Assembly (NCBI GenBank): GCA_964408485.1
Contig: CAYOZJ010000002.1
Location: 69,235-133,234, forward strand
DNA: 64,000 nt
Source: an uncultured Gammaproteobacteria bacterium
Lineage (GTDB): Bacteria > Patescibacteriota > Microgenomatia > Levybacterales > UBA12049
Direction of reading: 5' to 3'
Position numbers and translations under genes: made by a program
The notes under the pieces: model-generated
The model's database searches: none
What the model was told of the DNA's origin: nothing
What the model saw: only the letters and a program-made list of their open reading frames with translations
Shown: one piece after another, positions 5,114-42,349 of the stretch
How positions within the stretch are numbered: position 1 is the first letter of the stretch
Layout of the letters: every line of letters starts with the position of its first letter

Positions 5114-5566
5114 ATGAAATGTCCATACTGCGGTAATAACCAAACAGAGGTTGTAGAAACACGAGATAACGAAGAGCTAGAGACAATACGCAGAAGACGC
5201 AGTTGCAGTAATTGTGGCAAACGCTTTACCACATATGAGCGCATAGAAAATGTCGATTTATATGTACGGAAAAAAGATGGAAGGCGTGAGCTTTTTAATA
5301 GGGATAAATTAAGAAAAGGTGTGCTAACATCTACAGAGAAAACAAAAATTTCTGTAGAGACAGCAGAAAAAATCGTTGCAGATATAGAGCAAGAGATTCG
5401 TGCAAAAGGAATACTTGAAATAAAAAGTAAAGAAATAGGGGACATGGTTGCAAAACGCTTGAAAAAATTAGACAAAGTAGCATATATTCGCTTTGCCAGT
5501 GTTTTTAAACGCTTTGTCGATGTAGAAGATTTTGAAAAAGAAGTAAGAAAGTTGGTAATTAAATAA
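5114..5566 (+). CDS. nrdR: transcriptional repressor NrdR
   Basis: MKCPYCGNNQTEVVETRD...CSNCGKRFTTYERIE zinc ribbon plus ATP-cone. Confidence 0.95.
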   Translation: MKCPYCGNNQTEVVETRDNEELETIRRRRSCSNCGKRFTTYERIENVDLYVRKKDGRRELFNRDKLRKGVLTSTEKTKISVETAEKIVADIEQEIRAKGILEIKSKEIGDMVAKRLKKLDKVAYIRFASVFKRFVDVEDFEKEVRKLVIK

Positions 5567-8936: not shown

Positions 8937-9449
8937 ATGAAAAATATTCTCGCTGTGTCTTTTATTATTCTCTCAGCAGTATTATTAAGGCTTGTTCCGC
9001 ATGTGCCTAACTTTGCGCCGATTGGGGCAATGGCACTTTTTGGAGGAGCCCATCTTCAAAAGCGATATGCATTTTTTCTTCCGTTACTAGTAATGGTTTT
9101 ATCAGATATTTTCTTAGGATTTAGCGCAAGTACGCCTTCGGTATATGTAAGTTTTCTTATTATCGTTGGTATTGGTATGTGGTTGAGAAATCATACCAGC
9201 ATTCAAAATGTAATCGTAGCATCGCTTATATCCTCGACTATCTTTTATCTGCTTACTAATTTTAATTTTTGGTATCCTCAAGCTTTATATCCGCGAACGT
9301 TTTCGGGCATGCTTGATTCCTATATCATGGCCCTTCCATTCTTCAGGCCAACAATATTTGGGGATTTGTTTTATAACGGACTCTTCTTTGGTGGGTATGC
9401 ACTGGTTCAAAAAATTCTTTTCAAACAAGTAAAAGTATATGAGCAGTAA
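8937..9449 (+). CDS. small polytopic membrane protein, possible ECF-type S-component (cobalamin uptake?)
   Basis: 170 aa with ~5-6 hydrophobic helices. Sits between the DUF4430 gene and the PduO-type adenosyltransferase gene. No diagnostic motif. Confidence 0.35.
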   Translation: MKNILAVSFIILSAVLLRLVPHVPNFAPIGAMALFGGAHLQKRYAFFLPLLVMVLSDIFLGFSASTPSVYVSFLIIVGIGMWLRNHTSIQNVIVASLISSTIFYLLTNFNFWYPQALYPRTFSGMLDSYIMALPFFRPTIFGDLFYNGLFFGGYALVQKILFKQVKVYEQ

Positions 9450-9990
9450 GATTTATACTAAAACAGGGGATAAAGGGAAGACATCACTTTTTGATGGGAC
9501 ACGGGTCAGCAAAGATAATATTAGACTTGAAACATATGGCACATTTGATGAGTTGAGTAGTTATCTAGGGGTTGCACAGTCATTTTCGAAAGATAAAAAA
9601 TTAATAAAAGATTTGCAATCTATTCAAAAGGATTTACTTGATATTGGAGCATGCCTTGCAAATCCGCATAACACCCCTAGCAGAACGTTTTTAACGTACC
9701 TTGATGCAAGAGTCATCTCCTTTGAAAAAAGTATTGATGAGCAGACTCAGAAACTTAAACCATTAACTAGCTTTATTCTCTTTACTGGGAATAGTGCTAG
9801 TGCTTTTTTGCAATTGTCTCGTTCTGTTGCAAGACGATCTGAGAGACGACTTACTACTCTTTCTCAGAAAACCCCTATTGCTGCTGAATTTATCCGTTAT
9901 TTTAATAGACTTTCAGATTTACTCTATACCATGGGGCGTTTTGCCAATAGAACAACAAAAAAAGAAGTTATTTGGGAGCCTTTTAAGTAA
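9439..9990 (+). CDS. PduO-type ATP:cob(I)alamin adenosyltransferase
   Basis: N-terminal YTKTGDKGKTSL motif typical of PduO/MMAB family. Confidence 0.85.
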   Translation: MSSKIYTKTGDKGKTSLFDGTRVSKDNIRLETYGTFDELSSYLGVAQSFSKDKKLIKDLQSIQKDLLDIGACLANPHNTPSRTFLTYLDARVISFEKSIDEQTQKLKPLTSFILFTGNSASAFLQLSRSVARRSERRLTTLSQKTPIAAEFIRYFNRLSDLLYTMGRFANRTTKKEVIWEPFK

Positions 9991-14640: not shown

Positions 14641-14681
14641 GCTTTTCTGAGAGCCTCAAATCTGCTACAATTCACTCACTT

Positions 14682-14754
14682 GGGTCGGTAGCTCAGTTGG
14701 TTAGAGCACTTGTCTTATACACAGGCTGTCGGAGGTTCGAGTCCTCCCCGACCC
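14682..14754 (+). tRNA. tRNA-Ile (anticodon UAU)
   Basis: Cloverleaf folded by hand: acceptor GGGTCGG/CCGACCC, D-arm GCTC..GAGC, anticodon stem CTTGT/ACAGG with loop CTTATAC (U33, anticodon TAT, A37), T-arm GGAGG TTCGAGT CCTCC, discriminator A. No encoded CCA. Confidence 0.75.
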
Positions 14755-14760
14755 ACTGGA

Positions 14761-14795
14761 AAAATCCTTTCCCTTGGGGAGAGGATTTTTTTATT
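14761..14795 (+). terminator. rho-independent terminator after tRNA
   Basis: AATCCTTTCCCTTGGGGAGAGGATT hairpin followed by TTTTTTTATT. Confidence 0.6.
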
Positions 14796-14874
14796 GGTTG
14801 TGGACTCGAATGCCGGACTGAAGCGTAGCTGAAGGAGGCGGGGTCGCGAGGCGACAAAGTTGAACTTGTGACCG

Positions 14875-14899
14875 AGTCCTGCCCGACCCACTAACACCT
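14875..14899 (+). repeat. direct repeat of the tRNA-Ile 3' end (att-like)
   Basis: CGAGTCCTGCCCGACCCACT versus tRNA CGAGTCCTCCCCGACCCACT: about 20 nt with one mismatch, 125 bp downstream of the tRNA. Confidence 0.5.
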
Positions 14900-14942
14900 C
14901 ATTGACTCCTGAGCCTACTAGGTGTATGATTTTTGCTTCTTT

Positions 14943-16184
14943 ATGAAAACCGGCGTTATTGTTGATGCCTATTCGTCAGGGAGCTTACTTGCTCCTGAGT
15001 TTGCCAAGAAAGGTTATCAAATGATTCATGTTAGGAGTAAAGAAATCCCCGATAGGGCATATACTAATGCCCCTTTTCAGAAAAAGGATTTTATCGAAGA
15101 TATTTATGAGCCTGACCCTCAAAAACTTCTTGAAAGACTAAAGCAATACGATATCAGATTTGTCATTCCCGGAATTGAAACATCAGTTGAGCTGGCAGAT
15201 TTTTTAAGTGAAAGCCTTAATCTTCCCACCAATGGAACAGTATTAAGTTTTGCCAGACGAGATAAGTATGAAATGGTTAAACTTATTCGTAAAGCAGGGC
15301 TTCATACGGCAAGACAGATTAAGACAAATTCCCTTGAAGAAATGCTCACATTCGGAAGAAGTCTTTCTCAATTTCATGTTGTTTTAAAAGCATTGCGCAG
15401 TGCAGGCAATGATTTGGTATTTATTGCAAAAAATGAAGAGGAAGCGCGTGTTGGTTTTGAGAAAATCCTTGCAACAAAAACACAATTCATGGAAAACAAC
15501 ACGACTGTTTGTGTTCAGGAATTTCTAGAAGGGGAGGAATATATTGTAGATACTGTATCAGCCAACGGTCACGTTGTCGTAACAGACATATGGCGTCATA
15601 CATTCTCTCCCGCTAATGGATTGCCTGTTTTCTATGACTATGACGAACTTCTCTCACCAAGTGATCCCGATGCTGCAGAACTTTGTGAGTACACAGTAAA
15701 GGCTGTTAAAGCATTGGGAATTAAGTGGGGGCCAGCACATCCTGAAATTATGCTTACGCCGGACGGTCCGGCAGTTATTGAAATTGGTGCACGACTCGCA
15801 GGGGCAGGTATTCCTAAGCTTGCAAGAATAGGTCTTGGAAAAGCGCAAGTTGAATACACTGTTGCAGCATTTACGGATGTAAAAGAATTTGAAAACATGG
15901 TAAAGGAGAAAGTAAAACGTGCTAATTATTGCCTGTGGGTTTTACTCCTCTCGCATAATGAGGGAATATTGCAAAATCTTGAAAAATTTAACGATTTAGA
16001 AAAGCTTCCATCTTTTTATGAAAAGATTCTGGAAGTAAAGGTAGGGGAGAAGATAAAGAAAACACTTGATCTTACTTCAACTCCAGGTTTTGTTTTTTTA
16101 GTACACCCAGACAGGAATGTTGTTATGAATGACTATAAAAAGATTAGAGAACTTGAAGAAAATGGTCTATTTCCAGTAAAGTAA
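14943..16184 (+). CDS. ATP-grasp domain protein (ligase-type)
   Basis: ATP-grasp-like central region (VCVQEFLEGEEYIVDTVSANGHVVVTDIW). ATG 14943 (MKTGVIVDAY) is preferred over the track's GTG at 14922. Confidence 0.5.
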   Translation: MKTGVIVDAYSSGSLLAPEFAKKGYQMIHVRSKEIPDRAYTNAPFQKKDFIEDIYEPDPQKLLERLKQYDIRFVIPGIETSVELADFLSESLNLPTNGTVLSFARRDKYEMVKLIRKAGLHTARQIKTNSLEEMLTFGRSLSQFHVVLKALRSAGNDLVFIAKNEEEARVGFEKILATKTQFMENNTTVCVQEFLEGEEYIVDTVSANGHVVVTDIWRHTFSPANGLPVFYDYDELLSPSDPDAAELCEYTVKAVKALGIKWGPAHPEIMLTPDGPAVIEIGARLAGAGIPKLARIGLGKAQVEYTVAAFTDVKEFENMVKEKVKRANYCLWVLLLSHNEGILQNLEKFNDLEKLPSFYEKILEVKVGEKIKKTLDLTSTPGFVFLVHPDRNVVMNDYKKIRELEENGLFPVK

Positions 16185-24756: not shown

Positions 24757-26022
24757 ATGACTAGCAAAATTAAGTTCACTATTGAAAAGCGAGATAAAGC
24801 AAGTAAAGCAAGAGCTGGTAGACTTACCACTCCTCATGGAGTAGTCCATACACCAATGTTTATTCCTGTTGGAACACAAGCAACTGTTAAGACGCTTAGT
24901 CCGCATGAGCTGCAGGCTATGGGTGCTGAAATAGTTATGACAAATACCTATCATTTGCATCTTCGTCCGGGGGAGGAAGTAATAGAAAAAATGGGAGGGA
25001 TTGGAAAATTTATGTCTTGGAAGGGCCCTACTATGACAGATAGTGGGGGTTACCAGGTATTTTCTTTGGGTGCAGCTCAGAAAAAGATTACTTATAGAGG
25101 ACATAATGGTCAAAAGCTTAGCAAATTTAATAAGTCGGTTTTTCTCTCCCCTGAGAATATTGGATTACAATTGCCAGCTGTTACCAAAACTCGGGAAGAA
25201 AAAGAACTGAGTAAATTAAAATCAGCAAAAGTTACAGAGGAAGGGGTAAAGTTTTATTCCCATATTGATGGTCACATGGAGTGGTTTGATAGTGAAAAAT
25301 CAATTGCCATTCAGGAAAAATTAGGAGCGGATTTGATTGTTGCCTTTGATGATCATGAGTCGCCACTGTGGGATTACGAGTTAACAAAGATTTCATTAGA
25401 CAGAACTCATCAATGGGGGCTTCGAAGTCTTGCTGCGCAAACGAGGGATGACCAGCTTATGTATGGGATTGTCCATGGAGGTCATTTTCCAGATCTTCGA
25501 ATAGAGTCAGCAAAATTTGTGAATAAATATTTTGACGCAGTGTCCATTGGCGGATCATACAGTAGTAAAGAAATTCTCTACAGTATGGTTGAGGCATGTG
25601 TTAAAGAATTTGATGATGCAAAGCCCAGGCATTTGCTTGGAATTGCCGAAGTACAAGATCTTTTTGAAGCAGTGGAAAGAGGAATGGATTTTTTTGATTG
25701 TGTTGCAGCAACCAGAAGAGGAAGGCATGGAAGTGTATATATCAGTCCAGAAGAAGGCGGAACAACAAAAAACAATTACATTTTGGCTATTAAGCACAAC
25801 AAATACAGTTTGGATTCTGGCCCAATAGACAAAAACTGCACCTGTTATACATGCCAGAACTTTACCAGATCGTATATCTGTCATTTATTCCGTGCAGATG
25901 AAATCTTGGGTCAGCGGCTTGGTGCTTTGCATAATGTCCATTTTATTATTAATCTTGCCAAAAAAATCAGAGAAGCAATTTTGGAAGATAGATTTTTGGA
26001 GCTTAAGCATGAATGGATTTAG
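24757..26022 (+). CDS. tgt: queuine tRNA-ribosyltransferase
   Basis: TPHGVVHTPMFIPVGTQATVK, LGIAEVQDLF and zinc site CTCYTCQNFTRSYICHLF. Confidence 0.9.
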   Translation: MTSKIKFTIEKRDKASKARAGRLTTPHGVVHTPMFIPVGTQATVKTLSPHELQAMGAEIVMTNTYHLHLRPGEEVIEKMGGIGKFMSWKGPTMTDSGGYQVFSLGAAQKKITYRGHNGQKLSKFNKSVFLSPENIGLQLPAVTKTREEKELSKLKSAKVTEEGVKFYSHIDGHMEWFDSEKSIAIQEKLGADLIVAFDDHESPLWDYELTKISLDRTHQWGLRSLAAQTRDDQLMYGIVHGGHFPDLRIESAKFVNKYFDAVSIGGSYSSKEILYSMVEACVKEFDDAKPRHLLGIAEVQDLFEAVERGMDFFDCVAATRRGRHGSVYISPEEGGTTKNNYILAIKHNKYSLDSGPIDKNCTCYTCQNFTRSYICHLFRADEILGQRLGALHNVHFIINLAKKIREAILEDRFLELKHEWI

Positions 26023-27338
26023 TCAGTAGGATGTCCAATTTCTTCTAATGCCTGCTTTACGCTCCGGCCTCCTTGTTCTTCTGGAGTCAGAATGGGACTG
26101 TAACGCTTGGGTCTTCCTCGGAATTCATCTAGTATTGCCCCAGCCTGTCTTCGCGTCTGTCTTGCTTCTCGTACTTTTTCTCTATTAACAACATTAAATG
26201 TTTGGACGAATTCGCTACCTATTGCTTTTCTTCGCGCTTGTCTTGCCTCTCGGATTTTTCGTCTTCGATATTCTTTTATTCCTGCATTTCTTTCTGTCCG
26301 ACGCTTGGCAAGTTGCTCATCAACTCTTTCCATCCATGCTTCAGCTTGTCTATTTGCATCTTGAGGAGAAAAATCCTGATTAAGATAGCGCTCCAAAACT
26401 AACATTTTACCAACTGCAAGAAGTGCTTTATCTGCATTTCCATCCCAAAATGCATTATTTTGCGTGAGAAACTGCTCGACACGCTCAGGAGTTTTGTCTA
26501 GAAAAATAAGATGTCCAGCCATTGGGTCGTTAGTGTTGTGGCCGTTCTGTTTTTCAGCTGTTAAATATTCTTTTAATCTTGTTTGAGTAATTTCCTGGGG
26601 AAGCTGCACCATCCACAATAAATCCCAGTGTCTTTTTTGGTTATCTTCGGCAATGCCAACAAGCGTTGTTTTTGTTGCGTCAGATGTAAGATACGAAAGA
26701 GGAATACCTGTTTCTTCATGAAATTCTGCTTGCATTTGCTCAAGCGCACTTTTAGGCGTAGGGGGAATAAGTTGAGGCAATTCTTCATATCGCGTTGCGC
26801 CATTTGCATTCTTCTTAATGGGAGTTTGGGGTTGTCCTTCCCAGGATCCGCTTGCGGTAGTTGTTAGCGTGCGTGGATACAGGTTAACATTATCAGGTCT
26901 TGTACTTAAAACGATTTTATCGTCGCCAGTTATACCGATTGCCATAACACCACTGTGGCTGAGTTTGCGAGCTGTTTCATAAGGTGTATGTTCGTCTATG
27001 CCTGCACGGTGCTGAAAATAAGTTGCCGGAGCTGTTGTGTATTGGATAGCTTGCTGCTCTCCATGGTCTGTAAAGGAGGTAACAACATCGGCGGACGTTA
27101 TGTTAACTTTTAACGCGTCCCACGCTCCTTTACCGTTTTGTGTTTCCCTAAATGTGTCAATTTTTTGTTGAGATGCATGAAGTTCTTGAGGAGTAAGACG
27201 AGAAGGAGAATTGCCAATGAGTTGTAGGTGGTATCCGCTGAGAGAGGAGGGAGGAGGAATAACAAAACGGGAAGGATAAGGCTGCTTTCTCTCTAAAGAG
27301 AGATGTTTTTCAATCCTCATGAGTGGTTTTTCCCTCAT
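26019..27338 (-). CDS. hypothetical protein with Nudix-like box and Arg-rich C-terminus
   Basis: ALEQMQAEFHEETGI resembles the Nudix REx2EExG box. The C-terminus has repeated REARQARRKA / REARQTRRQA. Confidence 0.35.
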   Translation of the reverse strand: MREKPLMRIEKHLSLERKQPYPSRFVIPPPSSLSGYHLQLIGNSPSRLTPQELHASQQKIDTFRETQNGKGAWDALKVNITSADVVTSFTDHGEQQAIQYTTAPATYFQHRAGIDEHTPYETARKLSHSGVMAIGITGDDKIVLSTRPDNVNLYPRTLTTTASGSWEGQPQTPIKKNANGATRYEELPQLIPPTPKSALEQMQAEFHEETGIPLSYLTSDATKTTLVGIAEDNQKRHWDLLWMVQLPQEITQTRLKEYLTAEKQNGHNTNDPMAGHLIFLDKTPERVEQFLTQNNAFWDGNADKALLAVGKMLVLERYLNQDFSPQDANRQAEAWMERVDEQLAKRRTERNAGIKEYRRRKIREARQARRKAIGSEFVQTFNVVNREKVREARQTRRQAGAILDEFRGRPKRYSPILTPEEQGGRSVKQALEEIGHPTD

Positions 27339-27438
27339 AACCTGGAAGGATTATAAGGAAATGTTGTAGTAATAACAAGAGAGCAACAGGTAAAATTGGG
27401 GCTTGACAAAATACTAGCGTACTAGTATAATAGTACAC

Positions 27439-27690
27439 ATGCAATCTGAAGATCTCTGGTTGTTAGTAGGAGAGTTTACTAAAGCAAATTCAAAAGAAAA
27501 GCTTGAGAATCTGCTTAAAGGACTTCTGACACTAAGCGAAATTCAGGAATTAGCAGAGCGGTTTCGCATAGTGCAGCTTCTTAAAAAGGGAGTTGCTCAG
27601 CACGAGATAGCCAAAAAACTTGGAATTGGAGTGGCAACAGTCACAAGAGGTTCTAAGGAAATAAAACAAGGAAATTTTAAATATGTATAA
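27439..27690 (+). CDS. TrpR-like / YerC-YecD family DNA-binding protein
   Basis: 83 aa. LLKKGVAQHEIAKKLGIGVATVTRGSKE HTH typical of the TrpR/YerC family. Confidence 0.7.
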   Translation: MQSEDLWLLVGEFTKANSKEKLENLLKGLLTLSEIQELAERFRIVQLLKKGVAQHEIAKKLGIGVATVTRGSKEIKQGNFKYV

Positions 27691-27761
27691 CAAAAATAAC
27701 AAAGCAAATTGGCAGGACAACCTTTCTTTGAGGGGTTAAGTTCTGTTGTGGAATTTTTATA

Positions 27762-27790
27762 GCCTCTCGCATAGAGAGGTTTTTTTGTGG
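27762..27790 (+). terminator. rho-independent terminator
   Basis: AGCCTCTCGCATAGAGAGGTTTTTTTGTGG. Confidence 0.6.
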
Positions 27791-27800
27791 AAAGGAATAT

Positions 27801-28016
27801 ATGACAGAACAATTTAGAGAAGTTTTAAGAACAGTTAAGGGAGCAGGGGGATTGATAAGAAATCTTGTAGAAGATGCAGTAGAGGATCTAAGTGGTAGAA
27901 GAGCAAGAGAATACAAAAAACACATTGCTCGAAGACAGCAAGAGGATCCAACATTTGATCCAGGTAAGAGAGATTCGGATTCATATGATACGTCTAAAAG
28001 CTGTGGAAACGTATAG
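27801..28016 (+). CDS. small charged hypothetical protein (operon member 1)
   Basis: 71 aa, SD-like GGAAAGG upstream, follows terminator. Confidence 0.45.
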   Translation: MTEQFREVLRTVKGAGGLIRNLVEDAVEDLSGRRAREYKKHIARRQQEDPTFDPGKRDSDSYDTSKSCGNV

Positions 28017-28026
28017 ATGAAAGGAG

Positions 28027-28497
28027 ATGAGCAATATGAAAGGTGAAGTAAAAAGATTTTTTGAGAAAAGAAAAGACCAAGTGGTACGCCGTGCTTTATT
28101 AGAGCAGAGAGGTGAGGTATTAAAGGCCTCTGGATACCCTGATGTTGCACTTCACCCAATTGAAAGGGAGGGGCAGTATGTGTCCGAACGAAATAGAAGT
28201 CTCGTTCATAGAGTTTCTCTTGCTGAGGAGGATCGACAATACGTCCCATTTGCAGAAAGAAAATCCGAAAATACCACCTCTATGGAAGAATCTCGTGAAA
28301 GAACGTTTCGCGTTGGTGATTCTGTATATGCTCAATCATTTTATGTTGTTAGACCAGGTGGGTATGTGGTGCCTTATTATGAGTCAACGGTTGTTGAAAC
28401 TGAAGGACCTTTTAAAGGGGAGAGATATAAACATTCATTTCGAGGGAAAGATGAGATTGCACTTGCAGAGAGGTTAGAACGTGACGAAAGGAGGTGA
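28027..28497 (+). CDS. small charged hypothetical protein (operon member 2)
   Basis: 156 aa. Strong SD AAGGAGATGAGCAATATG. Arg/Glu-rich. Confidence 0.5.
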   Translation: MSNMKGEVKRFFEKRKDQVVRRALLEQRGEVLKASGYPDVALHPIEREGQYVSERNRSLVHRVSLAEEDRQYVPFAERKSENTTSMEESRERTFRVGDSVYAQSFYVVRPGGYVVPYYESTVVETEGPFKGERYKHSFRGKDEIALAERLERDERR

Positions 28498-28504
28498 ATA
28501 AAAT

Positions 28505-28822
28505 ATGAGTGGAAAACACAATAATGGAAGAAAGCATAAAGCTAAAGGACTAGGTCCTACGCTTTCAAGAAGGGAAAGAGTTGATCTATTGCAACTTTTT
28601 GCCCCAGAAGGAACAGTAGCAGTCAATTCGCACGGTGAAGCTACTCTTGTTACTGCGCGACAGAATGGGGAGGCTATTTTGCCAGGAACAGGAGGACTTA
28701 CGGAGCTACAACTTAATGAGAGCTCTCAGCATGGAACTGAAGTAATGAGAAGAAGAGAAGCGGAAGAAAGTATACGTAGACAAATGACAATGGGAGAGTT
28801 TCTTAGAGGAGGAAGAAAGTAA
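28505..28822 (+). CDS. small charged hypothetical protein (operon member 3)
   Basis: 105 aa. SD GAAAGGAGGTGAATAAAATATG. Confidence 0.5.
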   Translation: MSGKHNNGRKHKAKGLGPTLSRRERVDLLQLFAPEGTVAVNSHGEATLVTARQNGEAILPGTGGLTELQLNESSQHGTEVMRRREAEESIRRQMTMGEFLRGGRK

Positions 28823-28835
28823 TTTTTGAAAGGAG

Positions 28836-29039
28836 GTGATAGGTATGAAAAGACTAGAAATAGGAAGAATCTTGGATAGGGTGATTCCGAGAAGAGTGGA
28901 AAGACGACGCATAGCGCGAGAAGAGGCAGAAAAAGTTAGTATTGCAAGGGAGGTAATCAATAGGCGCAATACAGAGCTTGTCAGCCAAGGGAAAAGACCG
29001 GTTATTCTTGGAGAGTTTGGTGATTACGGATTCTTCTAA
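28836..29039 (+). CDS. small charged hypothetical protein (operon member 4)
   Basis: 67 aa. SD AAAGGAGGTGATAGGTATG. C-terminal GKRPVILGEFGDYGFF. Confidence 0.5.
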   Translation: MIGMKRLEIGRILDRVIPRRVERRRIAREEAEKVSIAREVINRRNTELVSQGKRPVILGEFGDYGFF

Positions 29040-29081
29040 GGTATCGGCAGGAGTGCACTCCTGCCACAAAGAAAGGAAAAT

Positions 29082-29777
29082 ATGAAAAATAAACAAATGA
29101 TAGGTATTTTAGGAGGTATGGGACCAAGTGCATCAGGCTATTTATATAATCTAATGAATAGTTTGGCTGTTAAAGAATATGGTGTAAAAAGAAATGATGA
29201 ATTTCCAGAGACCATTCTGTATTCTGTTCCTGTTCCTGATTTTATCTCTTCAAATAGAAATAAGGAAAAAGCATTACAGATGCTTGAAGGGCGGGTAAAA
29301 AGCCTTAATACATTTCCTGTAAAAGTGATCGGTATTGCTTGTAATACAGCACATATTCTATTACCTAATTTGGCTAAGCAGTCAAAATCACGATTCGTTT
29401 CTATGATTGATGAGGTTGTTGATAGAGTTTCACAGGAGGGTTTTAAAAATGTTGGTATTCTTGCTACTTCATCAACAATAAAGGCAAAACTCTATCAGAA
29501 GGGTTTAAAAATTAAAAACATACATACTATTATTCCTTCTTTGAAAGATCAGAAAGATCTTGATGAGATTATTAAAAGCATGGTGGGGGAAAGAGTTAGT
29601 ATGAAGCAGAGAAAAACAGTACTTTCAATCGTAGATAAATTCAAAAGCAAAGGTGCAGAAGCAATTATTTTGGGATGTACTGAGTTACCATTAATTTTTC
29701 CAAAACAATATTCTTTGCCTGTTTTTAATTCAGTAGAAATCTTAGCACGGGCACTTTTGAGAGAAACAATGATATAA
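29082..29777 (+). CDS. aspartate/glutamate racemase family protein
   Basis: MIGILGGMGPSAS, IGIACNTAHILL and ILGCTELPLIF motifs. Confidence 0.85.
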   Translation: MKNKQMIGILGGMGPSASGYLYNLMNSLAVKEYGVKRNDEFPETILYSVPVPDFISSNRNKEKALQMLEGRVKSLNTFPVKVIGIACNTAHILLPNLAKQSKSRFVSMIDEVVDRVSQEGFKNVGILATSSTIKAKLYQKGLKIKNIHTIIPSLKDQKDLDEIIKSMVGERVSMKQRKTVLSIVDKFKSKGAEAIILGCTELPLIFPKQYSLPVFNSVEILARALLRETMI

Positions 29778-29778
29778 T

Positions 29779-30117
29779 ATGAACAATATGGATAAAATAA
29801 CATTTGATGATTTCGCAAAATTAGAAATTCGCATTGGGACAATTCTCTCAGCAGAAAAAGTTCCAGATGGAGACAAGTTACTTAAATTACAAGTAGACTT
29901 TGGTGATGAAAAACGTCAAATCATGGCTGCAATTGCACTTTTTTATCCAGATCCAGAAGTTTTGATTGGTAAGCAAACACCTGTTGTTACTAATTTGGAG
30001 CCAAGAAAATTTAAAGGACATGAAAGCCAGGGTATGATAATTGCAACTGATAACGAAGAAGGAATAGTATTATTAACGCCGGAGAAAAAAGTTCCATCTG
30101 GAGCACGCGTACATTAA
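29779..30117 (+). CDS. tRNA-binding domain protein (CsaA/Trbp111-like)
   Basis: FAKLEIRIGTILSAEKVPDGDKLLKLQVDFGDE...QGMIIA OB-fold tRNA-binding signature. Confidence 0.75.
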   Translation: MNNMDKITFDDFAKLEIRIGTILSAEKVPDGDKLLKLQVDFGDEKRQIMAAIALFYPDPEVLIGKQTPVVTNLEPRKFKGHESQGMIIATDNEEGIVLLTPEKKVPSGARVH

Positions 30118-30119
30118 CT

Positions 30120-30842
30120 ATGAAAACGAAATTACTCTATTTAGAAGATTCTTATCTAAAGGAAATGGATGCAATAATTCTAGAAGTGTATCCAGATGCA
30201 AATGGTGCATATAAGGTAATTCTTGACCAGACTGTTTTTTATCCTGTTGGTGGAGGGCAATCGACGGATCAAGGAACACTAACGAGCGATTCATGGATTG
30301 GTAAGGTTATTGAAGTAGTCATAAAAGAAGGAGAAGTATGCCACTTTGTGAAGACCCAAGTTGCACCAGTTGTTGGGATGAAAGTGCATGGCGTTATTGA
30401 TTGGGATAGACGATATAAGAATATGCGATATCATTCAGCAGGGCACATTGTTGACTTTGCATTATTTGTGCTTGGATACTCGCCAAATACGCTCAAGCCT
30501 CTTAAAGCCGATCACGGAAAAAAGCCTTGGATTATGTATGGAGGAGAGGTTAAAGAGGACATTCGAGAGCAATTAGAGGAGAAAGCGAATGAATTAGTTG
30601 AGAAAGATTTGAAATTCACATGGCTTTTCCAACCCCTAGAAGACTTACAAAAAGAGGCAATCTATTTGCAGCCTGGTCTTCCAACAAATAAGCCACTGCG
30701 AACTTTGCGGCTTGAAACAGTAGGAGCAGTAGCAGATGGGGGAACACAGGTACATTCAACGAAAGAAGTAGGAAAAATTACCATTCCCGAAATAACGTTT
30801 GATGGACAAGATACAGTAGTACACTACACAGTAGAAGGATAA
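30120..30842 (+). CDS. AlaX-like alanyl-tRNA editing protein (SAD domain)
   Basis: HSAGHIV (HxxxH) and DGGTQVHST (CxxxH-like) zinc motifs of the AlaX / ThrRS-AlaRS second additional domain. Confidence 0.7.
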   Translation: MKTKLLYLEDSYLKEMDAIILEVYPDANGAYKVILDQTVFYPVGGGQSTDQGTLTSDSWIGKVIEVVIKEGEVCHFVKTQVAPVVGMKVHGVIDWDRRYKNMRYHSAGHIVDFALFVLGYSPNTLKPLKADHGKKPWIMYGGEVKEDIREQLEEKANELVEKDLKFTWLFQPLEDLQKEAIYLQPGLPTNKPLRTLRLETVGAVADGGTQVHSTKEVGKITIPEITFDGQDTVVHYTVEG

Positions 30843-30845
30843 AAT

Positions 30846-31841
30846 ATGGATAAAAAGAAAAAAGTATATAGCGGCATGCGGGCAACAGGGACAGGAAGAC
30901 TTCATCTTGGTAATTATTTAGGTGGAGCAAAAGGAATGCTTGCCTTGCAAGATGAGTATGACTGCACATTTTCTGTTGTAGATGCCCATGCAGTAACCAC
31001 TCCGTACGATCCAAAAATGCTTCGTGAGCAGGTACGAAATGTTATCTTGGATTATTTGGCAGTGGGACTTGATCCTGAGAAGTGTCGGATAGAAATTCAA
31101 TCTCAAATTCCCCAACACACAGAGCTGGGGTATTATCTTTCCAGCGTCTATCCATTAGCGCCATTAGAAGATTTACCAACATTTAAAGAGAAAAAAGCGC
31201 AATATCCTAAAAATGTAACCGCAGCTTTACTTAACTATCCTATCCTTATGGCAGCAGATATTCTTTTGTATAAAAGCGAATTAGTACCTGTTGGTATTGA
31301 TCAGGAGCCCCATTTGGAAGTTGCCAGAGAGATTGCTAGAAAATTTAACGCCGCGTATGGACAGACTTTCCCAGAGCCTGTGAGATTTAAAACAAAAGGA
31401 GAATATGTGCCATCACTTTTGGGACATGGGAAAATGAGTAAAACAGTCGAGGGAAGCTCAATTTACTTGGCAGATGATTTGGAAACAATTAAGAAAAAAT
31501 TAGCAAAAGTTACGACAGATTCTGGTACAAAAGGGGGACCAATTCCAAAAGAGGGAAGCGTTACGAATCTTTTTGCACTTTTTGCCCTTTTTAATAAAGA
31601 TGATATGCATAAAAAGTTTAAGAATGACTACGAAAAAGGCGTTATTCGCTACGGCGATATGAAGAATTTCTTGGCAGAGGCAATATATGAAGAGTTAAAA
31701 CCGATCCAAGAAAAGAGGAAATATTTCGAAGAAAATCCAGCGCTTGTTGATGAGATTTTGGCAGAAAGTCACGAAAAATGTCTTGCAATTGCCCGGGAAA
31801 CAATGCTTGAGGTGAAAGAAAAAATGGGACTACCTCTCTAG
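30846..31841 (+). CDS. trpS: tryptophan--tRNA ligase
   Basis: SGMRATGTGRLHLGNYLG (HIGH-class) and KMSKT (KMSKS) motifs. Confidence 0.9.
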   Translation: MDKKKKVYSGMRATGTGRLHLGNYLGGAKGMLALQDEYDCTFSVVDAHAVTTPYDPKMLREQVRNVILDYLAVGLDPEKCRIEIQSQIPQHTELGYYLSSVYPLAPLEDLPTFKEKKAQYPKNVTAALLNYPILMAADILLYKSELVPVGIDQEPHLEVAREIARKFNAAYGQTFPEPVRFKTKGEYVPSLLGHGKMSKTVEGSSIYLADDLETIKKKLAKVTTDSGTKGGPIPKEGSVTNLFALFALFNKDDMHKKFKNDYEKGVIRYGDMKNFLAEAIYEELKPIQEKRKYFEENPALVDEILAESHEKCLAIARETMLEVKEKMGLPL

Positions 31842-32752: not shown

Positions 32753-33658
32753 ATGCGAAAATTACAGCCTGAAAGAGTAAGAGAATTCCGCAGAAAAATA
32801 CTTTCCTGGTATAAAAAGAATAAGCGTGATTTACCTTGGCGCCATCCTTCGCTAAAGCTTCGGAATGGTAAAGGACGTGATCCTTATGCAATTCTTGTTT
32901 CAGAAGTAATGCTTCAACAAACACAAGTGAGTCGAGTCATTGAAAAATATAATGAGTGGATAAAAGCATTTCCAACAATTAGGAAATTGGCAAAAGCATC
33001 TTTTAGAGATATCTTGTCTCGTTGGTCAGGGCTTGGATACAACAGGCGTGCTTTATATCTGCAGCAGCTTGCCCAGGATATTGTGAAAAATCACCATGGA
33101 AAGTTTCCGCAGAATGAAAAAGAGCTACAAAAGCTTCCTGGCATTGGGGAATATACAGCTAGAGCAATTCTTTGTTTTGCATTTAATGAGCAAGTTGCTG
33201 TAGTGGATACAAATATCAGAAAAGTCATACTTACAAATTTTTTCTCTGAGCGAGCGAGGCGAGTCGAAGAGCCTTCGACAGGCTCAGGCAAAAAAGGTTC
33301 TGGGCAAGCCAGAATGACAGATAAAGAAATCCAAGAAATTGCAAATCAGCTTCTTCCAAAAGGAAAGGCCTATGAGTGGAATCAGGCGCTTATGGACTAT
33401 GCATCGAGTGAGTTAAAGCAGGAAAAAATACCAATTCCTAAGCAGTCAAAATTTAAAGATTCAGATAGGTATTATCGTGGAGAGATTTTGCGTATGCTTC
33501 TTACTAATCCTGCCTATTCATTTGAAGAGGTACAAAAACATTTTGTAGAAATCAAAAAAGAAATTTCTTCGCAGCGCCTTGAGAGAATAGTTCAAACATT
33601 ATATAAGGATAGATTTATTGAATATACAAAATCCGTTATAGTTCTGAGAAAGAATTAA
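32753..33658 (+). CDS. HhH-GPD DNA glycosylase (MutY/Nth family) with in-frame repeat insertion
   Basis: WYKKNKRDLPWR, PYAILVSEVMLQQTQV and LPGIGEYTARAILCFAFNEQVAVVDTNIRKV (HhH-GPD). Contains inserted FFSERARRVEEPSTGSGKKGSGQARMTDK. Confidence 0.8.
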   Translation: MRKLQPERVREFRRKILSWYKKNKRDLPWRHPSLKLRNGKGRDPYAILVSEVMLQQTQVSRVIEKYNEWIKAFPTIRKLAKASFRDILSRWSGLGYNRRALYLQQLAQDIVKNHHGKFPQNEKELQKLPGIGEYTARAILCFAFNEQVAVVDTNIRKVILTNFFSERARRVEEPSTGSGKKGSGQARMTDKEIQEIANQLLPKGKAYEWNQALMDYASSELKQEKIPIPKQSKFKDSDRYYRGEILRMLLTNPAYSFEEVQKHFVEIKKEISSQRLERIVQTLYKDRFIEYTKSVIVLRKN

Positions 33659-33885
33659 ATAAAAGGAAGTAGTCGCCATCTTCTTTTTCTTTCGGGCTGA
33701 GGTTGGAAAAGAGGCTGGGAAGCTTCTTGTTGTTGTCGATGGGCAAGTGCAGCATCTTCGAGATCGACAAAAACTCTCGTGACATCAACAATATTACCAA
33801 GCCTATCTCTTTCGAAAACTAAGTGGGTGGGGCGATACTCCAGTGACACAGATATAGGTATACGTTTTGAGTAGTAAAAAATCAA
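33655..33885 (-). CDS. hypothetical small protein
   Basis: 76-aa ORF in an otherwise empty 540-bp spacer. Confidence 0.2.
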   Translation of the reverse strand: MIFYYSKRIPISVSLEYRPTHLVFERDRLGNIVDVTRVFVDLEDAALAHRQQQEASQPLFQPQPERKRRWRLLPFI

Positions 33886-33931
33886 ATAAAAAATCTGCAG
33901 ATTTATGTAAGGAATTTGTCAGGGATAAGAG

Positions 33932-34114
33932 TTAACGGGTTCGTTCGTTTTCAGGATGTAGTTTATGAATGTCTCGTTCCATGTTTATGTCTCTTGTAGT
34001 CCATAGCCTTAAGCCTCGTGGAATTCTTGTTGCTCCAAAAGGGACTGCATGATATCTTGATGCTTCATCTCTGTCTGAAAGATCTCTCAAAAAATAACTA
34101 TCAATTTGTGTCAT
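33932..34114 (-). CDS. hypothetical small protein
   Basis: 60-aa ORF in the same spacer. Confidence 0.2.
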   Translation of the reverse strand: MTQIDSYFLRDLSDRDEASRYHAVPFGATRIPRGLRLWTTRDINMERDIHKLHPENERTR

Positions 34115-34227: not shown

Positions 34228-36099
34228 ATGCCTCAGCCAAAGAAAACTCAGCGAAAAATAGTAAAATTCAAAGTTAATTTTTCCTGGAAAAACCTCTTTT
34301 TGTATGGATTCCTTCTCCTTATGCTCCTTCTTCTTTTTGCTGGATTTACCAGTGAAAATCCAACACAAAAAAGTGTCGCACTTTCTCAAATTGTTAATGA
34401 CGTAAAGAGTGGGAAGGTAAAAGAGTTAACAGTCTCGGATACAAAAATTGTTGCAACCGAACAAAATGGAAGTGTACAAAGTACAAAAGAAGCAGGGAGC
34501 AGCGTCTATACACTTTTTAAAGACGCAGGAGGAAGTCTGGACAAGACAAAAGTAACCATTAAAGATGATAGCAGTCTGACTAACTGGGTCAATATTTTAT
34601 CTGGTGTTTTGCCAATTGTCCTTATGATTGCATTCTTTTACTTCCTCTTTAGACAAGCGAGAGGTGCGCAGGAAAATATATTTTCCTTTGGACAGAGTAG
34701 AGCAAAGCAATTTAGTAAAGATACGCCTAAAACAACCTTTGCTGATGTTGCAGGAGTAGATGATGCAAAACAAGAATTATCTGAAATCGTTGATTTCCTC
34801 AAAAATCCTGGTAAATATAAAGCAATGGGAGCGCGTACTCCAAAAGGAGTACTCATGATTGGTCCAAGTGGCACTGGTAAGACGCTTTTAGCCCGCGCAA
34901 CAGCAGGAGAAGCAGGCGTTGCATTCTTCTCTATGGCAGGATCTGAATTTATGGAAATGCTTGTTGGTGTTGGGGCTTCAAGAGTGAGAGATCTGTTTAA
35001 CACAGCTAAAAAAGCACAACCTGCAATTATCTTTATTGATGAAGTTGATGCAATTGGGAGACAACGGGGAAGTGGACTTATGGGCGGACATGATGAGCGT
35101 GAGCAGACGCTTAATCAAATTTTGGTTGAGATGGATGGATTTACTCAAAATGAGCAAATCGTTGTTATGGCAGCAACCAATAGACCAGATGTCTTGGATC
35201 CTGCATTAGTACGTCCTGGAAGATTTGACAGACGCGTAAGTCTGGATATGCCCGATTTGGAAGGCAGAAAAGCAATTCTTCTTATTCATTCTAAAGGCAA
35301 ACCAATGGAGAAAAATGTTGACTGGGAGAAAGTTGCCAAGAGGACTGTTGGATTTAGTGGTGCAGATTTGGAAAACATGCTTAATGAAGCAGCGATTGGC
35401 GCAGCAAGAAGTGGAAAGACAGCAATAGATATGGCAGAGCTGGAAGAGTCTGCAACAAAAGTAAAATTAGGACCTGAGAAAAAAAGGTTACAGTCAGAGG
35501 AAGATAAGAAAATGACTGCATATCACGAAGGAGGTCACGCATTGGTGAGTTGGTTTATGCCTCATTTAGAGCCAATTCATAGAATTTCTATTGTGAGTCG
35601 TGGTATGAGTCTGGGACACACGATGGCAGAGTCAGATGATCATTTGCACGAAACCAAGACATATCTCCTTGAACAAATCGCTATGATGCTTGGTGGGAGA
35701 GCAGCAGAGCAGGTGGTATTTGGAGAAATAACAACTGGAGCCTCTAACGATATAGAAAAAGCAACGTCAGTTGCAAGACAGATGGTCTTAGAGCTTGGAA
35801 TGAGCGATTTAGGACCGGTTAATTTGGCGCCTGACAAGAGATTTATCTATGAGGGATATGAAGTATCTCCTGAAATGAAATCTCATGTAGATAGTGAAGT
35901 AAAAAAGATTTTAGATGAAGGGTATAGAATTGCAATGAAAGTCCTTAAAGACTTACGCAAAGACTTAGATAAATTGGCAGAAGCATTACTGAAGAAGGAG
36001 ACAATGGAATCAGAAGAATTTGTCTTGCTTCTTGGAGCAAAGCCAAAGGGTGTTAGTCCATTTCTTCCTAGAATTGCTGCAGCTAAGGTAAGAAGTTAA
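34228..36099 (+). CDS. ftsH: ATP-dependent zinc metalloprotease FtsH
   Basis: Two TM segments, AAA Walker [12 protein letters not shown], and HEGGHA zinc motif. The track start of 34198 is also possible. Confidence 0.95.
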
Positions 36100-36294
36100 G
36101 CAGCTTTTCTCGCAGGTGATTGTGATCGTGTTCTTCCTCTTGCAGCTCTTACTCCTCTAAAAAGAAGTTCAACAGGTTTTTGTAGAATCCTTCTAGGAAT
36201 TTCCGGTTGAGCAAGAAGAGGTCCAACCACTTGTATTGCTTGCTCCGCTAGTTGTTCGAGTATCATATAGTAATTATATCATGGAGGTAGAATA

Positions 36295-37320
36295 TTGTCA
36301 TGGTATACTACAAAGTACATGAAAAAGTTACTTCTGATTGATGGAAATGCCATTTTACACCGTGCATTTCATGCCTATCCACCAGTATTTTCTGACAAAG
36401 AGGGTAATCCTACAAATGCTATTTATGGCTTTTATGCAATGCTTTTAAAAGTTATGGAGGAGGTAAAACCAGATTTACTCACCATTTGCTTTGATCAAGG
36501 TGCGCCGACTTTTCGCATGAATATGTATGCTGGGTATCATGCCAATAGGCCAAAAATGCAGGACACATTGGGAGTACAGGTCGAGCCCTTGCGTGAGTCT
36601 TTGCGTAAAATAGGAATTCCCGTTGAAGCAATCGATGGATATGAAGCAGATGATTTAATTGGGACATTATCTCATCAAGCGTCAAGCGTAAGGCGTAAAG
36701 GGGAAAGTTTGGAAACAATAATCCTAACAGGTGACAGGGATCTTTTGCAGTTAATTAACGAGCATACCAAAGTTCTTATGCCAATAACAGGAATTACGAA
36801 GTCTGTCTTAATGGATGAAGGAGCAGTTGAGGCAAAATACGGCATAAAGGCAAGTCAGGTAATTGATTACAAAGCCTTAGTTGGCGACCCGTCTGATAAC
36901 TATCCAGGTGTTGGGGGAATAGGTCCTAAAACAGCGGCAACACTTCTTAAAGAGTGGGAAACATTGGAGAATTTGTATACCCATTTGGGAGATATAAAAC
37001 CTGAGTTGAGTCAAAAATTAGCTCAAGATGCAGAGCAGGCAATGCTATGCAAGAAGTTGGCAACCATTCAGCTAGACGTACCTGTTCATTTAGATATAAA
37101 GAAAGCAGATGTAGACAATTTTTCTCTGGAAAAGTTTTTGGATATTTTCGAGCACTTCAATATTCACTCATTGGTTAAGAGGCTTAGTCTAGCGCTAGGA
37201 AGTGAAGCACCTATAACACGAAGCGAGACGAAGCAATCTAGTTTAAAGAAAGATTCTGGACAAGCCAGAATGACGAAAGAAGAAAAGAAGAAAGAGGATA
37301 GTCAACTAGAGCTACTTTAG
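36295..37320 (+). CDS. 5'-3' exonuclease (stand-alone Pol I 5'-nuclease/FEN domain) with repeat-derived C-terminal tail
   Basis: LLLIDGNAILHRAFHA and GDRDLLQL, H3TH region. The C-terminal ~40 aa (SETKQSSLKKDSGQARMTKEEKKKED) derive from repeat DNA. Confidence 0.85.
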   Translation: MSWYTTKYMKKLLLIDGNAILHRAFHAYPPVFSDKEGNPTNAIYGFYAMLLKVMEEVKPDLLTICFDQGAPTFRMNMYAGYHANRPKMQDTLGVQVEPLRESLRKIGIPVEAIDGYEADDLIGTLSHQASSVRRKGESLETIILTGDRDLLQLINEHTKVLMPITGITKSVLMDEGAVEAKYGIKASQVIDYKALVGDPSDNYPGVGGIGPKTAATLLKEWETLENLYTHLGDIKPELSQKLAQDAEQAMLCKKLATIQLDVPVHLDIKKADVDNFSLEKFLDIFEHFNIHSLVKRLSLALGSEAPITRSETKQSSLKKDSGQARMTKEEKKKEDSQLELL

Positions 37321-37502
37321 TGTGGTCTGTGTGAGATTTTTCTTGCATGTAATTCTCTAAAAATTGCTTCCATGCCTCCTCGTTCTCTCGTAGCGACTGT
37401 TTCTATTGGTGACCTTGTTTCACCAGCTAACATTTTTTGAGCAGTCCTTCTTTTTGCTCGGGTAATCTTTGCTTCTTGGGTTTTACTTCGCAATTCGGTC
37501 AT
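37317..37502 (-). CDS. hypothetical small basic protein
   Basis: 61 aa, Arg/Lys-rich. Confidence 0.25.
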   Translation of the reverse strand: MTELRSKTQEAKITRAKRRTAQKMLAGETRSPIETVATRERGGMEAIFRELHARKISHRPH

Positions 37503-41328: not shown

Positions 41329-41514
41329 ATGTCAGAAAGAAAAGATGGATATGACTACGGAGCAGATAGCGGAGATGATAATCTTGCTCGTGTACAAAGA
41401 CAGGTAGAAGAGGGCAGACGCCCAGTTATATTAAGAAGTCCACGAGATGGAAGTGTAACTGTAGTAACAAGAGTTATTCACGATTTACCAGGTCAGTCAA
41501 AGAAAAAAATCTAG
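41329..41514 (+). CDS. small hypothetical protein (dispersed small-protein family candidate)
   Basis: 61 aa, strong SD GAGGAGGTGAATTTATTTTATG, followed by terminator. Motif GRRPVILRSPRDGSVTVV. Confidence 0.5.
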   Translation: MSERKDGYDYGADSGDDNLARVQRQVEEGRRPVILRSPRDGSVTVVTRVIHDLPGQSKKKI

Positions 41515-41538: not shown

Positions 41539-41575
41539 ACAACCTCTGATTGAACTCAGAGGTTGTATTTTTATG
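41539..41575 (+). terminator. rho-independent terminator
   Basis: ACAACCTCTGATTGAACTCAGAGGTTGT hairpin followed by ATTTTTAT. Confidence 0.7.
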
Positions 41576-41644
41576 TCTCTTCTTGCTATCTTACTCATTC
41601 TTTGCTATTATTTTCAATTGGAACTAGTAAAATAGTTTCACTGT

Positions 41645-42349
41645 ATGGGATCGAATTATTTAGATAAAATAGTCATATCTATTGGTGGATCCCTTATCGT
41701 TCCTAATGGAGGAATTGATACACAATTTTTGAAGCAACTTAATGACTTCATAAGACAGCAACTGGCAAGTCACCCCGACCGCCAGTTTTTTTTGGTAATA
41801 GGGGGTGGAGGGACAGCCAGACAGTATCGTGATGCAGGAAAAGATTCAGTAAAGAATATTACTGAAGAAGATTTGGACTGGCTTGGTATCCATGCGACTC
41901 GCCTTAATGCTCATTTAGTCCGTACTCTTTTTGCAGATATAGCCCACCCAACCATTATTGAGCATTATGATGTCATACGAAAAGTGGAAGAGCCAGTCGT
42001 TGTTGCGTCAGGTTGGAAGCCTGGTTGGTCAACTGACTTTGATTCAGTCCTTCTCTGCGAAGACTACAGCGTAAAAACAGTCCTCAACCTCTCCAACATC
42101 AAACAAGTTTACACAGCAGATCCTAAAAAAGACCCAAATGCCAAACCAATTGACCATATTTCCTGGGCAGATTACAGGAAAATGGTTGGAGACGTGTGGA
42201 CACCTGGGCTTAATGCGCCATTTGATCCTATTGCTTCAAGAAAAGCAGAAGAACTTGGAGTAAAAACAGTTGTTATGGATGGATTAGACTTTGCAAATAT
42301 AGAAAAGTATTTTGATGGAAAACCCTTTTTAGGGACAGTGATTGAGTGA
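41645..42349 (+). CDS. pyrH: uridylate (UMP) kinase, archaeal-like amino-acid-kinase fold
   Basis: IVISIGGSLIVPNGG and FFLVIGGGGTARQY. Confidence 0.7.
   Translation: MGSNYLDKIVISIGGSLIVPNGGIDTQFLKQLNDFIRQQLASHPDRQFFLVIGGGGTARQYRDAGKDSVKNITEEDLDWLGIHATRLNAHLVRTLFADIAHPTIIEHYDVIRKVEEPVVVASGWKPGWSTDFDSVLLCEDYSVKTVLNLSNIKQVYTADPKKDPNAKPIDHISWADYRKMVGDVWTPGLNAPFDPIASRKAEELGVKTVVMDGLDFANIEKYFDGKPFLGTVIE

Follow-up and report, generated by a model that had tools for sequence, protein, structure and literature searches.

Four small orphan reading frames behind a predicted trpR-trpL control module in a bacterium of the Candidate Phyla Radiation

Results

Genes and features of the locus

We analyzed a 64,000-nucleotide stretch of contig CAYOZJ010000002.1 (the window) from an uncultured bacterium of the Candidate Phyla Radiation (CPR), with a focus on four small consecutive open reading frames (ORFs), here called A to D, and on the gene for a TrpR-family repressor and the leader region that precede them. 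An earlier note on this DNA had described A to D as a self-contained, co-expressed set of small proteins lying between a terminator and a closing hairpin. The features at the center of the analysis are as follows.

27439-27690, + strand: TrpR-family repressor gene (trpR), 83 aa; PF01371, E 1e-20, 73.9 bits against a cut-off of 27
27683-27739, + strand: trpL-like leader ORF, 18 codons, MYNKNNKANWQDNLSLRG; stop codon at 27737-27739
27801-28016, + strand: A, 71-aa orphan protein, no Trp
28036-28497, + strand: B, 153-aa orphan protein (156 aa from ATG 28027), no Trp
28505-28822, + strand: C, 105 aa, no Trp
28845-29039, + strand: D, 64 aa, no Trp; invariant C-terminal tail GKRPVILGEFGDYGFF
29046-29065, + strand: D-linked stem-loop without a U-run; the next bases are ACAAAGAAAGG

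The four ORFs are present on the + strand as first listed (27801-28016, 28027-28497, 28505-28822 and 28836-29039), and public annotations of the same organism, from NCBI and Logan, call each of them a gene. Among the lengths first given (71, 156, 105 and 67 aa), those of A and C hold. For B, the probable start is ATG 28036 (as in a Logan call), giving 153 aa, since ATG 28027 directly adjoins AAGGAG, and D almost certainly starts at ATG 28845 (the NCBI call), giving 64 aa, because GTG 28836 falls within the Shine-Dalgarno (SD) sequence of D. The intergenic gaps A-B, B-C and C-D measure 19, 7 and 22 nt, in place of the 8-13-nt spacers noted before. An unusually strong SD had been ascribed to every ORF; C and D do carry perfect 10-mers (AAGGAGGTGA), but the SD of A is modest (AAAGGA). 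Most genes of the window have no SD and strong sites are rare, with GGAGGTGA standing before the start codon in only three ORFs of the 64 kb: C, D and a small ORF at 41329. The higher GC content ascribed to the block proved marginal (0.38-0.43 vs. 0.395 ± 0.016 for genes), and the excess is confined to codon positions 1 and 2, reflecting amino-acid composition, with third-position GC (GC3) at 0.21-0.37 vs. 0.30. A foreign origin of A-D, considered on the basis of GC content, was rejected in view of their native GC3 and codon usage.

The hairpin that closes the block is confirmed as a perfect 20-bp palindrome, GGCAGGAGTGCACTCCTGCC (ΔG −15.7, z −3.5). As an intrinsic terminator it lacks the U-run after the stem, and the terminator scan does not report it. 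It is identical behind a D homologue on one short metagenome contig (L011), retains its GGCAGG/CCTGCC arms on another (L010), and was seen only behind D when the rest of the window and the other loci were searched. Integron attC-like cassette boundaries were rejected, as there is a single palindrome, after D.

The hairpin in front of the block belongs to a predicted trpL-type attenuator

The terminator reported in front of the block exists as a hairpin with a T-run at 27761-27786, but it is the 3:4 hairpin of what we predict to be a Trp leader-peptide attenuator, and not a boundary of A-D. The leader ORF begins with an ATG that overlaps the 3' end of trpR (ATGTATAA) and contains a single Trp codon, TGG at 27710-27712, and it is accompanied by three mutually exclusive pairings.

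27719-27737, + strand: attenuator hairpin 1:2 at the 3' end of the leader ORF; segment 1 AACCTTTC at 27719-27726, segment 2 GAGGGGTT at 27730-27737
27729-27768, + strand: antiterminator 2:3, TGAGGGGTTAA pairing with TATAGCCTCTC
27761-27786, + strand: terminator 3:4, AGCCTCTC (27761-27768)-GCATA-GAGAGGTT (27774-27781) followed by T7

Homologous leaders with one to three Trp codons follow TrpR-like genes in ~33 of ~55 distinct related loci (MKNKINSNNWWTNDLW, MKNLNNNWWTNFLW and MITGNYKNWWWTSTSGRLRR are examples), and about half of them overlap the trpR stop. Tandem Trp codons are absent from the window and from the loci L002-L004 and L005 (one Trp codon each) and are found as WW or WWW in more than 20 other loci. 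In the window, the antiterminator duplex has a ΔG of −12.0 (z −3.1, p 0.003 vs. shuffles), and the corresponding pairing is significant (p ≤ 0.05) in 13 of 26 loci despite differing stem sequences. The spacing between the first Trp codon and the start of segment 2 is constant, at 15-26 nt in 25 of the 26 loci, and the 8-bp stem of the terminator shows covariation at six of its eight pairs across loci. A covariance model made from 18 other CPR loci, with the window and its closest relative left out, gave one strong match in the window, at 27701-27786 (46.8 bits, E 3.4e-7), the next match scoring 18.1 bits. In addition, the Rfam Trp_leader model (RF00513; gathering threshold 41 bits) comes near its threshold on the predicted leader of L018 (35.9 bits). 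A riboswitch or T-box in the intergenic region was rejected, with no Rfam match to either.

trpR promoter and predicted operator

The following two features lie at the 5' end of trpR.

27403-27431, + strand: trpR promoter, TTGACA-17-TATAAT, 12/12 to the sigma-70 consensus
27411-27436, no strand: predicted TrpR operator, tandem TACTAG/CTAG repeats 8 bp apart, over the −10 box

The repressor scores 59.8 bits with the TrpR equivalog model TIGR01321 (cut-off 67.25) and 35.6 bits with the YerC/YecD model TIGR02531, which is below both the cut-off of that model (42.2) and the TrpR score; the nearest species representative of the gene is a 'Patescibacteria group bacterium'. Because the −10 box ends 7 nt 5' of the trpR ATG, a layout also found in related loci, the trpR mRNA would be leaderless. 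A TATAAT box (≥ 5/6) ending 4-10 nt before the start is found for 18 of 50 long genes vs. 4.3% of all ATGs, and we regard the host genome as largely leaderless. Near-consensus TATAAT is also seen at the ATG of most stand-alone small ORFs of the window, and further examples lie at 11685, 21835, 36266, 40943, 42777, 47731 and 56534.

Within the predicted operator lies the near-palindrome GTACTAGTATAATAGTAC (27419-27436), which we take to be close to the E. coli trp operator, GTACTAGTTAACTAGTAC. The operator is the only exact match to its pattern in the window, and CTAG repeats occupy the same promoter position in 43 of 49 distinct TrpR-like loci. A test for binding of the TrpR-like protein at 27700..27800 had earlier been proposed; there is no operator-like site there, and the predicted site lies instead at the trpR promoter. 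Taken together, the predicted trpR-trpL module of leader, attenuator and operator is conserved family-wide. A possible second operator is GAACTAGTAAAATAGTTT at 41621-41638, which differs from the operator pattern at three positions and lies just 5' of a gene of the amino-acid-kinase family (41645-42349).

The block is probably part of a longer transcription unit

Four further genes follow D on the same strand.

29082-29777, + strand: Asp/Glu-family amino-acid racemase (PF01177, TIGR00035), no Trp
29779-30117, + strand: tRNA-binding domain protein (PF01588, E 9e-27), no Trp
30120-30842, + strand: AlaX-like editing protein, four Trp
30846-31841, + strand: tryptophanyl-tRNA synthetase (TrpRS, trpS; TIGR00233, 292.8 bits vs. 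a cut-off of 176.75), no Trp; last gene of the inferred operon

From 27790 to 31841 the scan found no + strand promoter of ≥ 10/12 and no terminator, and the −10-at-ATG signature is absent from A, B, C, D, the racemase, the tRNA-binding protein, AlaX and TrpRS. As neither a promoter nor a terminator separates the attenuator from the end of trpS, and as none of these genes has the −10-at-ATG signature, trpR, trpL, the attenuator, A, B, C, D and the genes for the racemase, the tRNA-binding protein, AlaX and TrpRS are likely to be co-transcribed as a single unit. Co-expression of the four ORFs, as the earlier note had it, is thus probable, but their status as a separate operon is not upheld, because the hairpin at 27761-27786 is part of the predicted trpL-type attenuator.

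In other CPR loci the module is followed by genes for PALP (TrpB-type; 18), Asp/Glu racemase (6), TrpE (5), TrpRS (5) and TrpG (3), and also by TrpD and TrpA. At one locus (L065), a tRNA-Trp(CCA) gene (5258-5333) starts 5 nt past the attenuator T-run; a 338-aa Trp-free protein of unknown family (with a 63% homologue in L063) and then TrpRS come after it. Of 62 ORFs scanned behind TrpR at other loci, six (at L027, L030, L031, L033, L047 and L048, assigned from ORF lengths) encode the Asp/Glu-type racemase, which is also present in the window, and this recurrence suggests a Trp-related role, e.g. in D-amino acid use. A protein of 320-330 aa with no Pfam family stands behind the attenuator at two distant loci, L015 (5853-6848) and L058 (6755-7714; 32% identity, E 5e-50), and is a candidate member of the Trp regulon.

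Coding status, composition and homology of A-D

Codon log-odds in frame are 0.34 for A, 0.31 for B, 0.28 for C and 0.15 for D (host genes, 0.30 ± 0.07), and they are negative in all five other frames; a 190-aa antisense ORF scores −0.06. C and D each have a single homologue, P0014 (68% identical) and P0015 (69% identical), with dN/dS of 0.22 for C and 0.14 for D as a whole, from which both are clearly real protein-coding genes under purifying selection. Over the last 24 codons of D there are seven synonymous and two nonsynonymous differences (Nei-Gojobori; one amino-acid change; ω 0.06); the C-terminal 17 residues are identical between the homologues, and the last 23 match at 22. For A and B, the support as genes comes from codon usage alone, and their translation is inferred.

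The proteins had been called highly charged and rich in Arg, Glu and Gly. Arg (11-20% vs. 4.7 ± 2.4%) and charged residues (28-41% vs. 23 ± 6%) are indeed enriched, but Gly is enriched only in C. All four are very hydrophilic, with a grand average of hydropathy of −0.6 to −1.1, isoelectric points of 7.9-11.1 and no hydrophobic segment. In agreement with the earlier view that they belong to no characterized family, no significant match was found in Pfam, NCBIfam, PHROGs, PADLOC or the PDB, with none better than E 0.006 and none at a curated cut-off, and phage genomes and IMG/VR contigs gave no match either. For A, the searches covered the family collections, the PDB, phage genomes and IMG/VR, all without a match. 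B matched only itself among 5.8 billion clusters and has no relative among 1.84 billion representative proteins (full HMMER), and an alignment of D found nothing in JGI metagenomes. The AlphaFold2 (AF2) model of B, made from the single sequence, is unusable, with a predicted local distance difference test score (pLDDT) of 42. The model of C (pLDDT 71, predicted template modeling score 0.35) consists of a helix, a small sheet and a long helix, and has no neighbor among PDB folds (best E 0.77). A-D themselves are ordinary orphans for CPR.

The C-terminal tail of D had been likened to motifs in other small proteins of the window, and of this only one weak case remains: GKRPVIL of D against GRRPVIL of ORF 41329-41514 (hhalign probability 33%, pairwise P 4.5e-4). 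That ORF is stand-alone, 61 aa long and Trp-free, with a promoter at ~41203 and a terminator at ~41543-41570, and has the only GGAGGTGA SD outside A-D.

Several other relationships were considered and rejected. Paralogy inside the window among A-D and U439, a 439-aa orphan encoded divergently from trpR (26019-27338, − strand), found no support in tblastn (nothing below E 0.09). U439 has no match in Pfam, NCBIfam or PADLOC; a 44%-identical homologue occupies the same position in L014, and by eye its C-terminus contains two Arg-rich repeats ending in EF. A common Arg-rich ...GEF module in A, C, D and U439 is unsupported, U439 being the top match of a hidden Markov model of the C-terminus of C at E 1.1 and the hhalign P values ranging from 0.038 to 0.11. 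D is not a fragment or mimic of TrpRS, as a recurrent weak tblastn match to the segment LEVAREIA...KGEY had suggested (hhalign probability 0.3%). Nor are A-D decayed trp genes or remnants of the cargo of relatives: among 108 downstream proteins compared with 27690-29100 (database size 1.4 kb), none was better than E 0.02.

A-D occupy a variable slot

Relatives with the same flanking genes (TGT 83%, TrpRS 81% and TrpR 90% identical) have unrelated genes (121 and 207 aa) behind TrpR. A relative with a 69%-identical TrpR has a 299-aa orphan in the place of A-D, and further relatives have orphans of 137 and 331 aa, or of 338 aa. Because these relatives retain the frame of trpR at one end and the genes for the tRNA-binding protein and TrpRS at the other with different cargo between them, the slot just behind the predicted attenuator is variable. 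On the contig L010 (ERZ27233565), C is preceded by another gene and followed by a disrupted D and then by a small membrane protein; on L011 (ERZ27274652), D comes after another gene and has a small membrane protein and a further small charged protein behind it. The idea of the four genes as a conserved small-protein system is thus not supported, since the closest syntenic relatives have unrelated genes and C and D occur elsewhere with other neighbors; the ORFs are not conserved in relatives, an outcome that the earlier note itself had named as counting against it, and the 'system' reading is weakened.

A 15-nt sequence, TATATGACAGAACAA, is identical within 27787-27812 of the window and 3877-3915 of L005. 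It takes in the four codons (MTEQ) that open the first post-attenuator gene; after the MTEQ codons, A and the 299-aa orphan of L005 diverge fully. This suggests a replacement boundary just inside that gene. The closest syntenic relative, L002, has toxin-antitoxin pairs at 9394-9956 and 14447-14957 (RelB-like with a 94-aa protein, and PhdYeFM/YafQ), at positions that match the window slots of U439 and of the end of the trpS operon, and these two slots are flexible insertion points. Small charged minus-strand ORFs lie between the same housekeeping genes in the window (33655-34114, 36096-36266 and 37317-37502) and in L002 (15811-16290 and 18266-18451) and, judged by position alone, may be positionally conserved.

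Tryptophan avoidance

A-D contain no Trp in 393 aa (background 0.92%, P 0.026). When all loci are taken together, Trp makes up 0.17% (60/34,514) of the residues in ORFs behind the TrpR/attenuator module, compared with 1.07% (413/38,694) in the ORFs upstream in the same loci. Such avoidance fits proteins that are needed when Trp is scarce, and as A-D have the same trait, we infer that they may be made during Trp starvation.

Discussion

Proposed control and reading of the locus

We suggest that A-D are accessory genes, restricted to their lineage, that occupy a variable slot in a Trp-controlled operon, and put the probability of this reading at about 0.6. The proposed response of the unit to Trp combines repression and attenuation, and is derived from the sequence elements described above and from the established E. 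coli mechanism (PMC7755916). The Trp-bound repressor would sit on the CTAG-repeat operator over its own −10 box and lower transcription of the whole unit. Ribosomes ending trpR would re-initiate at the overlapping 18-codon leader. With charged tRNA-Trp plentiful, the ribosome would reach the leader stop at 27737-27739 and cover segment 2, so that the 3:4 terminator forms and transcription ends at 27786. With charged tRNA-Trp scarce, it would stall at the TGG at 27710-27712 and cover segment 1, allowing the 2:3 pairing and read-through into A-D and on to trpS. B, C and D would then be translated from strong SD sites within the transcript.

Several observations weigh against this reading. The leader in the window has a single Trp codon and not the tandem pair typical of trpL. 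The Rfam Trp_leader model (RF00513) has no match in the window at E ≤ 5. A and B have no relatives and thus no comparative support, and D is a pseudogene in L010, so it is dispensable in at least one lineage and A-D cannot be an obligate set. The absence of Trp from 393 aa is by itself only modestly unlikely, and the difference in Trp content across the regulon (Fisher p 6e-58) counts homologues as independent. In addition, the promoter scan was consensus-based, and a weak non-consensus promoter 5' of A or of the racemase gene would escape it.

Alternative explanations

The alternative that survives best, although we consider it improbable, is that some or all of the ORFs, A and B above all, are non-functional, being young de novo ORFs or decaying filler transcribed by virtue of their position. 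No homologue of A or B was found in the collections searched for each, every relative has other content in the slot, L010 carries a disrupted D, and the AF2 model of B is of low confidence, all of which would be expected of such ORFs. Against this, A and B match housekeeping genes in their in-frame codon log-odds and score negatively in the other five frames, 71 and 153 codons are long for a genome of 39% GC, C and D are under purifying selection, and all four ORFs avoid Trp like the rest of the regulon.

Somewhat less probable still is an autonomous four-gene operon with its own promoter 3' of a true terminator, forming a small-protein system perhaps controlled by the TrpR-like protein at 27700-27800. 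The tight packing of the genes, their strong SDs and the hairpin that closes the block would suit it. However, 27690-27800 contains no promoter-like site, A having an SD but no −10 box, and 27700-27800 contains no operator-like site; the hairpin at 27761-27786 belongs to a conserved attenuator, no U-run follows the closing hairpin, the racemase gene behind that hairpin lacks a promoter of its own, and the four genes are not inherited together.

We give little credence to the block being cargo of a phage or mobile element, such as moron-like cassettes, a toxin-antitoxin set or an anti-phage defense set. The genes are small and led by strong SDs that are atypical of the host genome, their order is mosaic between contigs, and toxin-antitoxin pairs (RelB-like, PhdYeFM/YafQ) occupy neighboring slots of relatives. 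On the other side, A-D have no match in PHROGs, PADLOC, phage genomes or IMG/VR, they have native codon usage and GC3, the block is not flanked by an integrase, repeats or att-like sites, and the palindrome is found only after D. Finally, that D is the precursor of a RiPP-like peptide (one made by the ribosome and modified after translation), with a charged leader and GKRPVILGEFGDYGFF as a conserved core, is very improbable: the 17 identical C-terminal residues between 69%-identical homologues, with seven synonymous changes in the last 24 codons, would fit it, but no radical SAM enzyme, cyclodehydratase, protease or exporter is encoded nearby in the window, L010 or L011, and a docking motif accounts equally well for the conserved tail.

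Possible roles and significance

For A-D as accessory genes of a Trp-controlled operon, the regulation has become predictable. Our guess at their role, which we hold to be unlikely as it stands, is that under Trp starvation A-D bind either RNA (tRNA or the ribosome) or a conserved partner, for which D would use its invariant aromatic tail. RNA binding is suggested by the fact that these are basic, Arg-rich, soluble proteins probably co-expressed with tRNA-related genes, and a docking motif by the invariance of the tail. More speculatively, and with still less confidence, A-D could be a Trp-free, Arg-rich set made by an episymbiotic CPR bacterium only in starvation, when the Trp supply from its host runs short, and acting on tRNA, ribosomes or the host interface with D docking via GEFGDYGFF; the slot behind the trpL attenuator would then be a general CPR landing pad for evolved or captured starvation-response genes.

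CPR genomes are full of small orphan genes without an experimental handle. Here the context provides one, consisting of a predicted induction signal (Trp or tRNA-Trp limitation), a predicted operator, and a predicted attenuator open to point mutation. The trpR-trpL module together with Trp avoidance, which is strong (~six-fold) among the controlled CPR proteins, would give a simple sequence-only definition of a Trp-starvation regulon in uncultured symbionts.

Comparison with known systems

Our literature search found no paper describing leader-peptide attenuation combined with TrpR repression for CPR, a combination that on our predictions is widespread there; the CPR-wide trpR-trpL module and the Trp-starvation context of A-D are new. 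Unusual features of the CPR module are a leaderless trpR that is translationally coupled to trpL, and a translation-centered regulon that includes trpS, tRNA-Trp, trpB and a recurrent racemase.

Bacillus subtilis trpS is controlled by a T-box, which binds uncharged tRNA directly. Both that system and the one predicted here put the essential TrpRS gene behind a conditional terminator that senses tRNA-Trp charging. Here, however, the predicted sensor is a ribosome translating a leader ORF, and the element, of ~85 nt, has no Rfam T-box match.

The E. coli trp operon is under dual control by the TrpR repressor and by attenuation through the TrpL leader peptide (PMC7755916). Both systems have a TrpR-family repressor and a CTAG-type palindromic operator overlapping the promoter (here predicted), and in both a short ORF with one or more Trp codons precedes 1:2, 2:3 and 3:4 hairpins that exclude one another, and a U-run. 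Unlike in E. coli, trpR here is on the same transcript, 5' of the leader, with its stop overlapping the leader start; the mRNA is predicted to be leaderless, and the leader has one Trp codon and no RF00513 match. The targets are also different, being trpS, a tRNA-binding protein, AlaX, a racemase and four orphans, and not biosynthetic enzymes.

In the trpRBA operon of Chlamydia trachomatis, trpR comes first and is autoregulated from PtrpR, and is followed by an intergenic regulatory region and then by trpBA (PMC7755916). The layout here is the same, and many CPR loci have the order trpR-leader-trpB. The annotated Chlamydia TrpL is long, has no tandem Trp codons and was judged a poor attenuator, with control exerted via YtgR (PMC7755916), whereas in the CPR elements the leaders are compact, with WW or WWW, and the terminators are clear. 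Like other orphan small proteins of CPR/Patescibacteria, A-D are short, hydrophilic proteins that are restricted to a lineage and show no detectable family; unlike those, they have a predicted induction by Trp starvation, avoid Trp, and are led by strong SDs in a largely leaderless genome.

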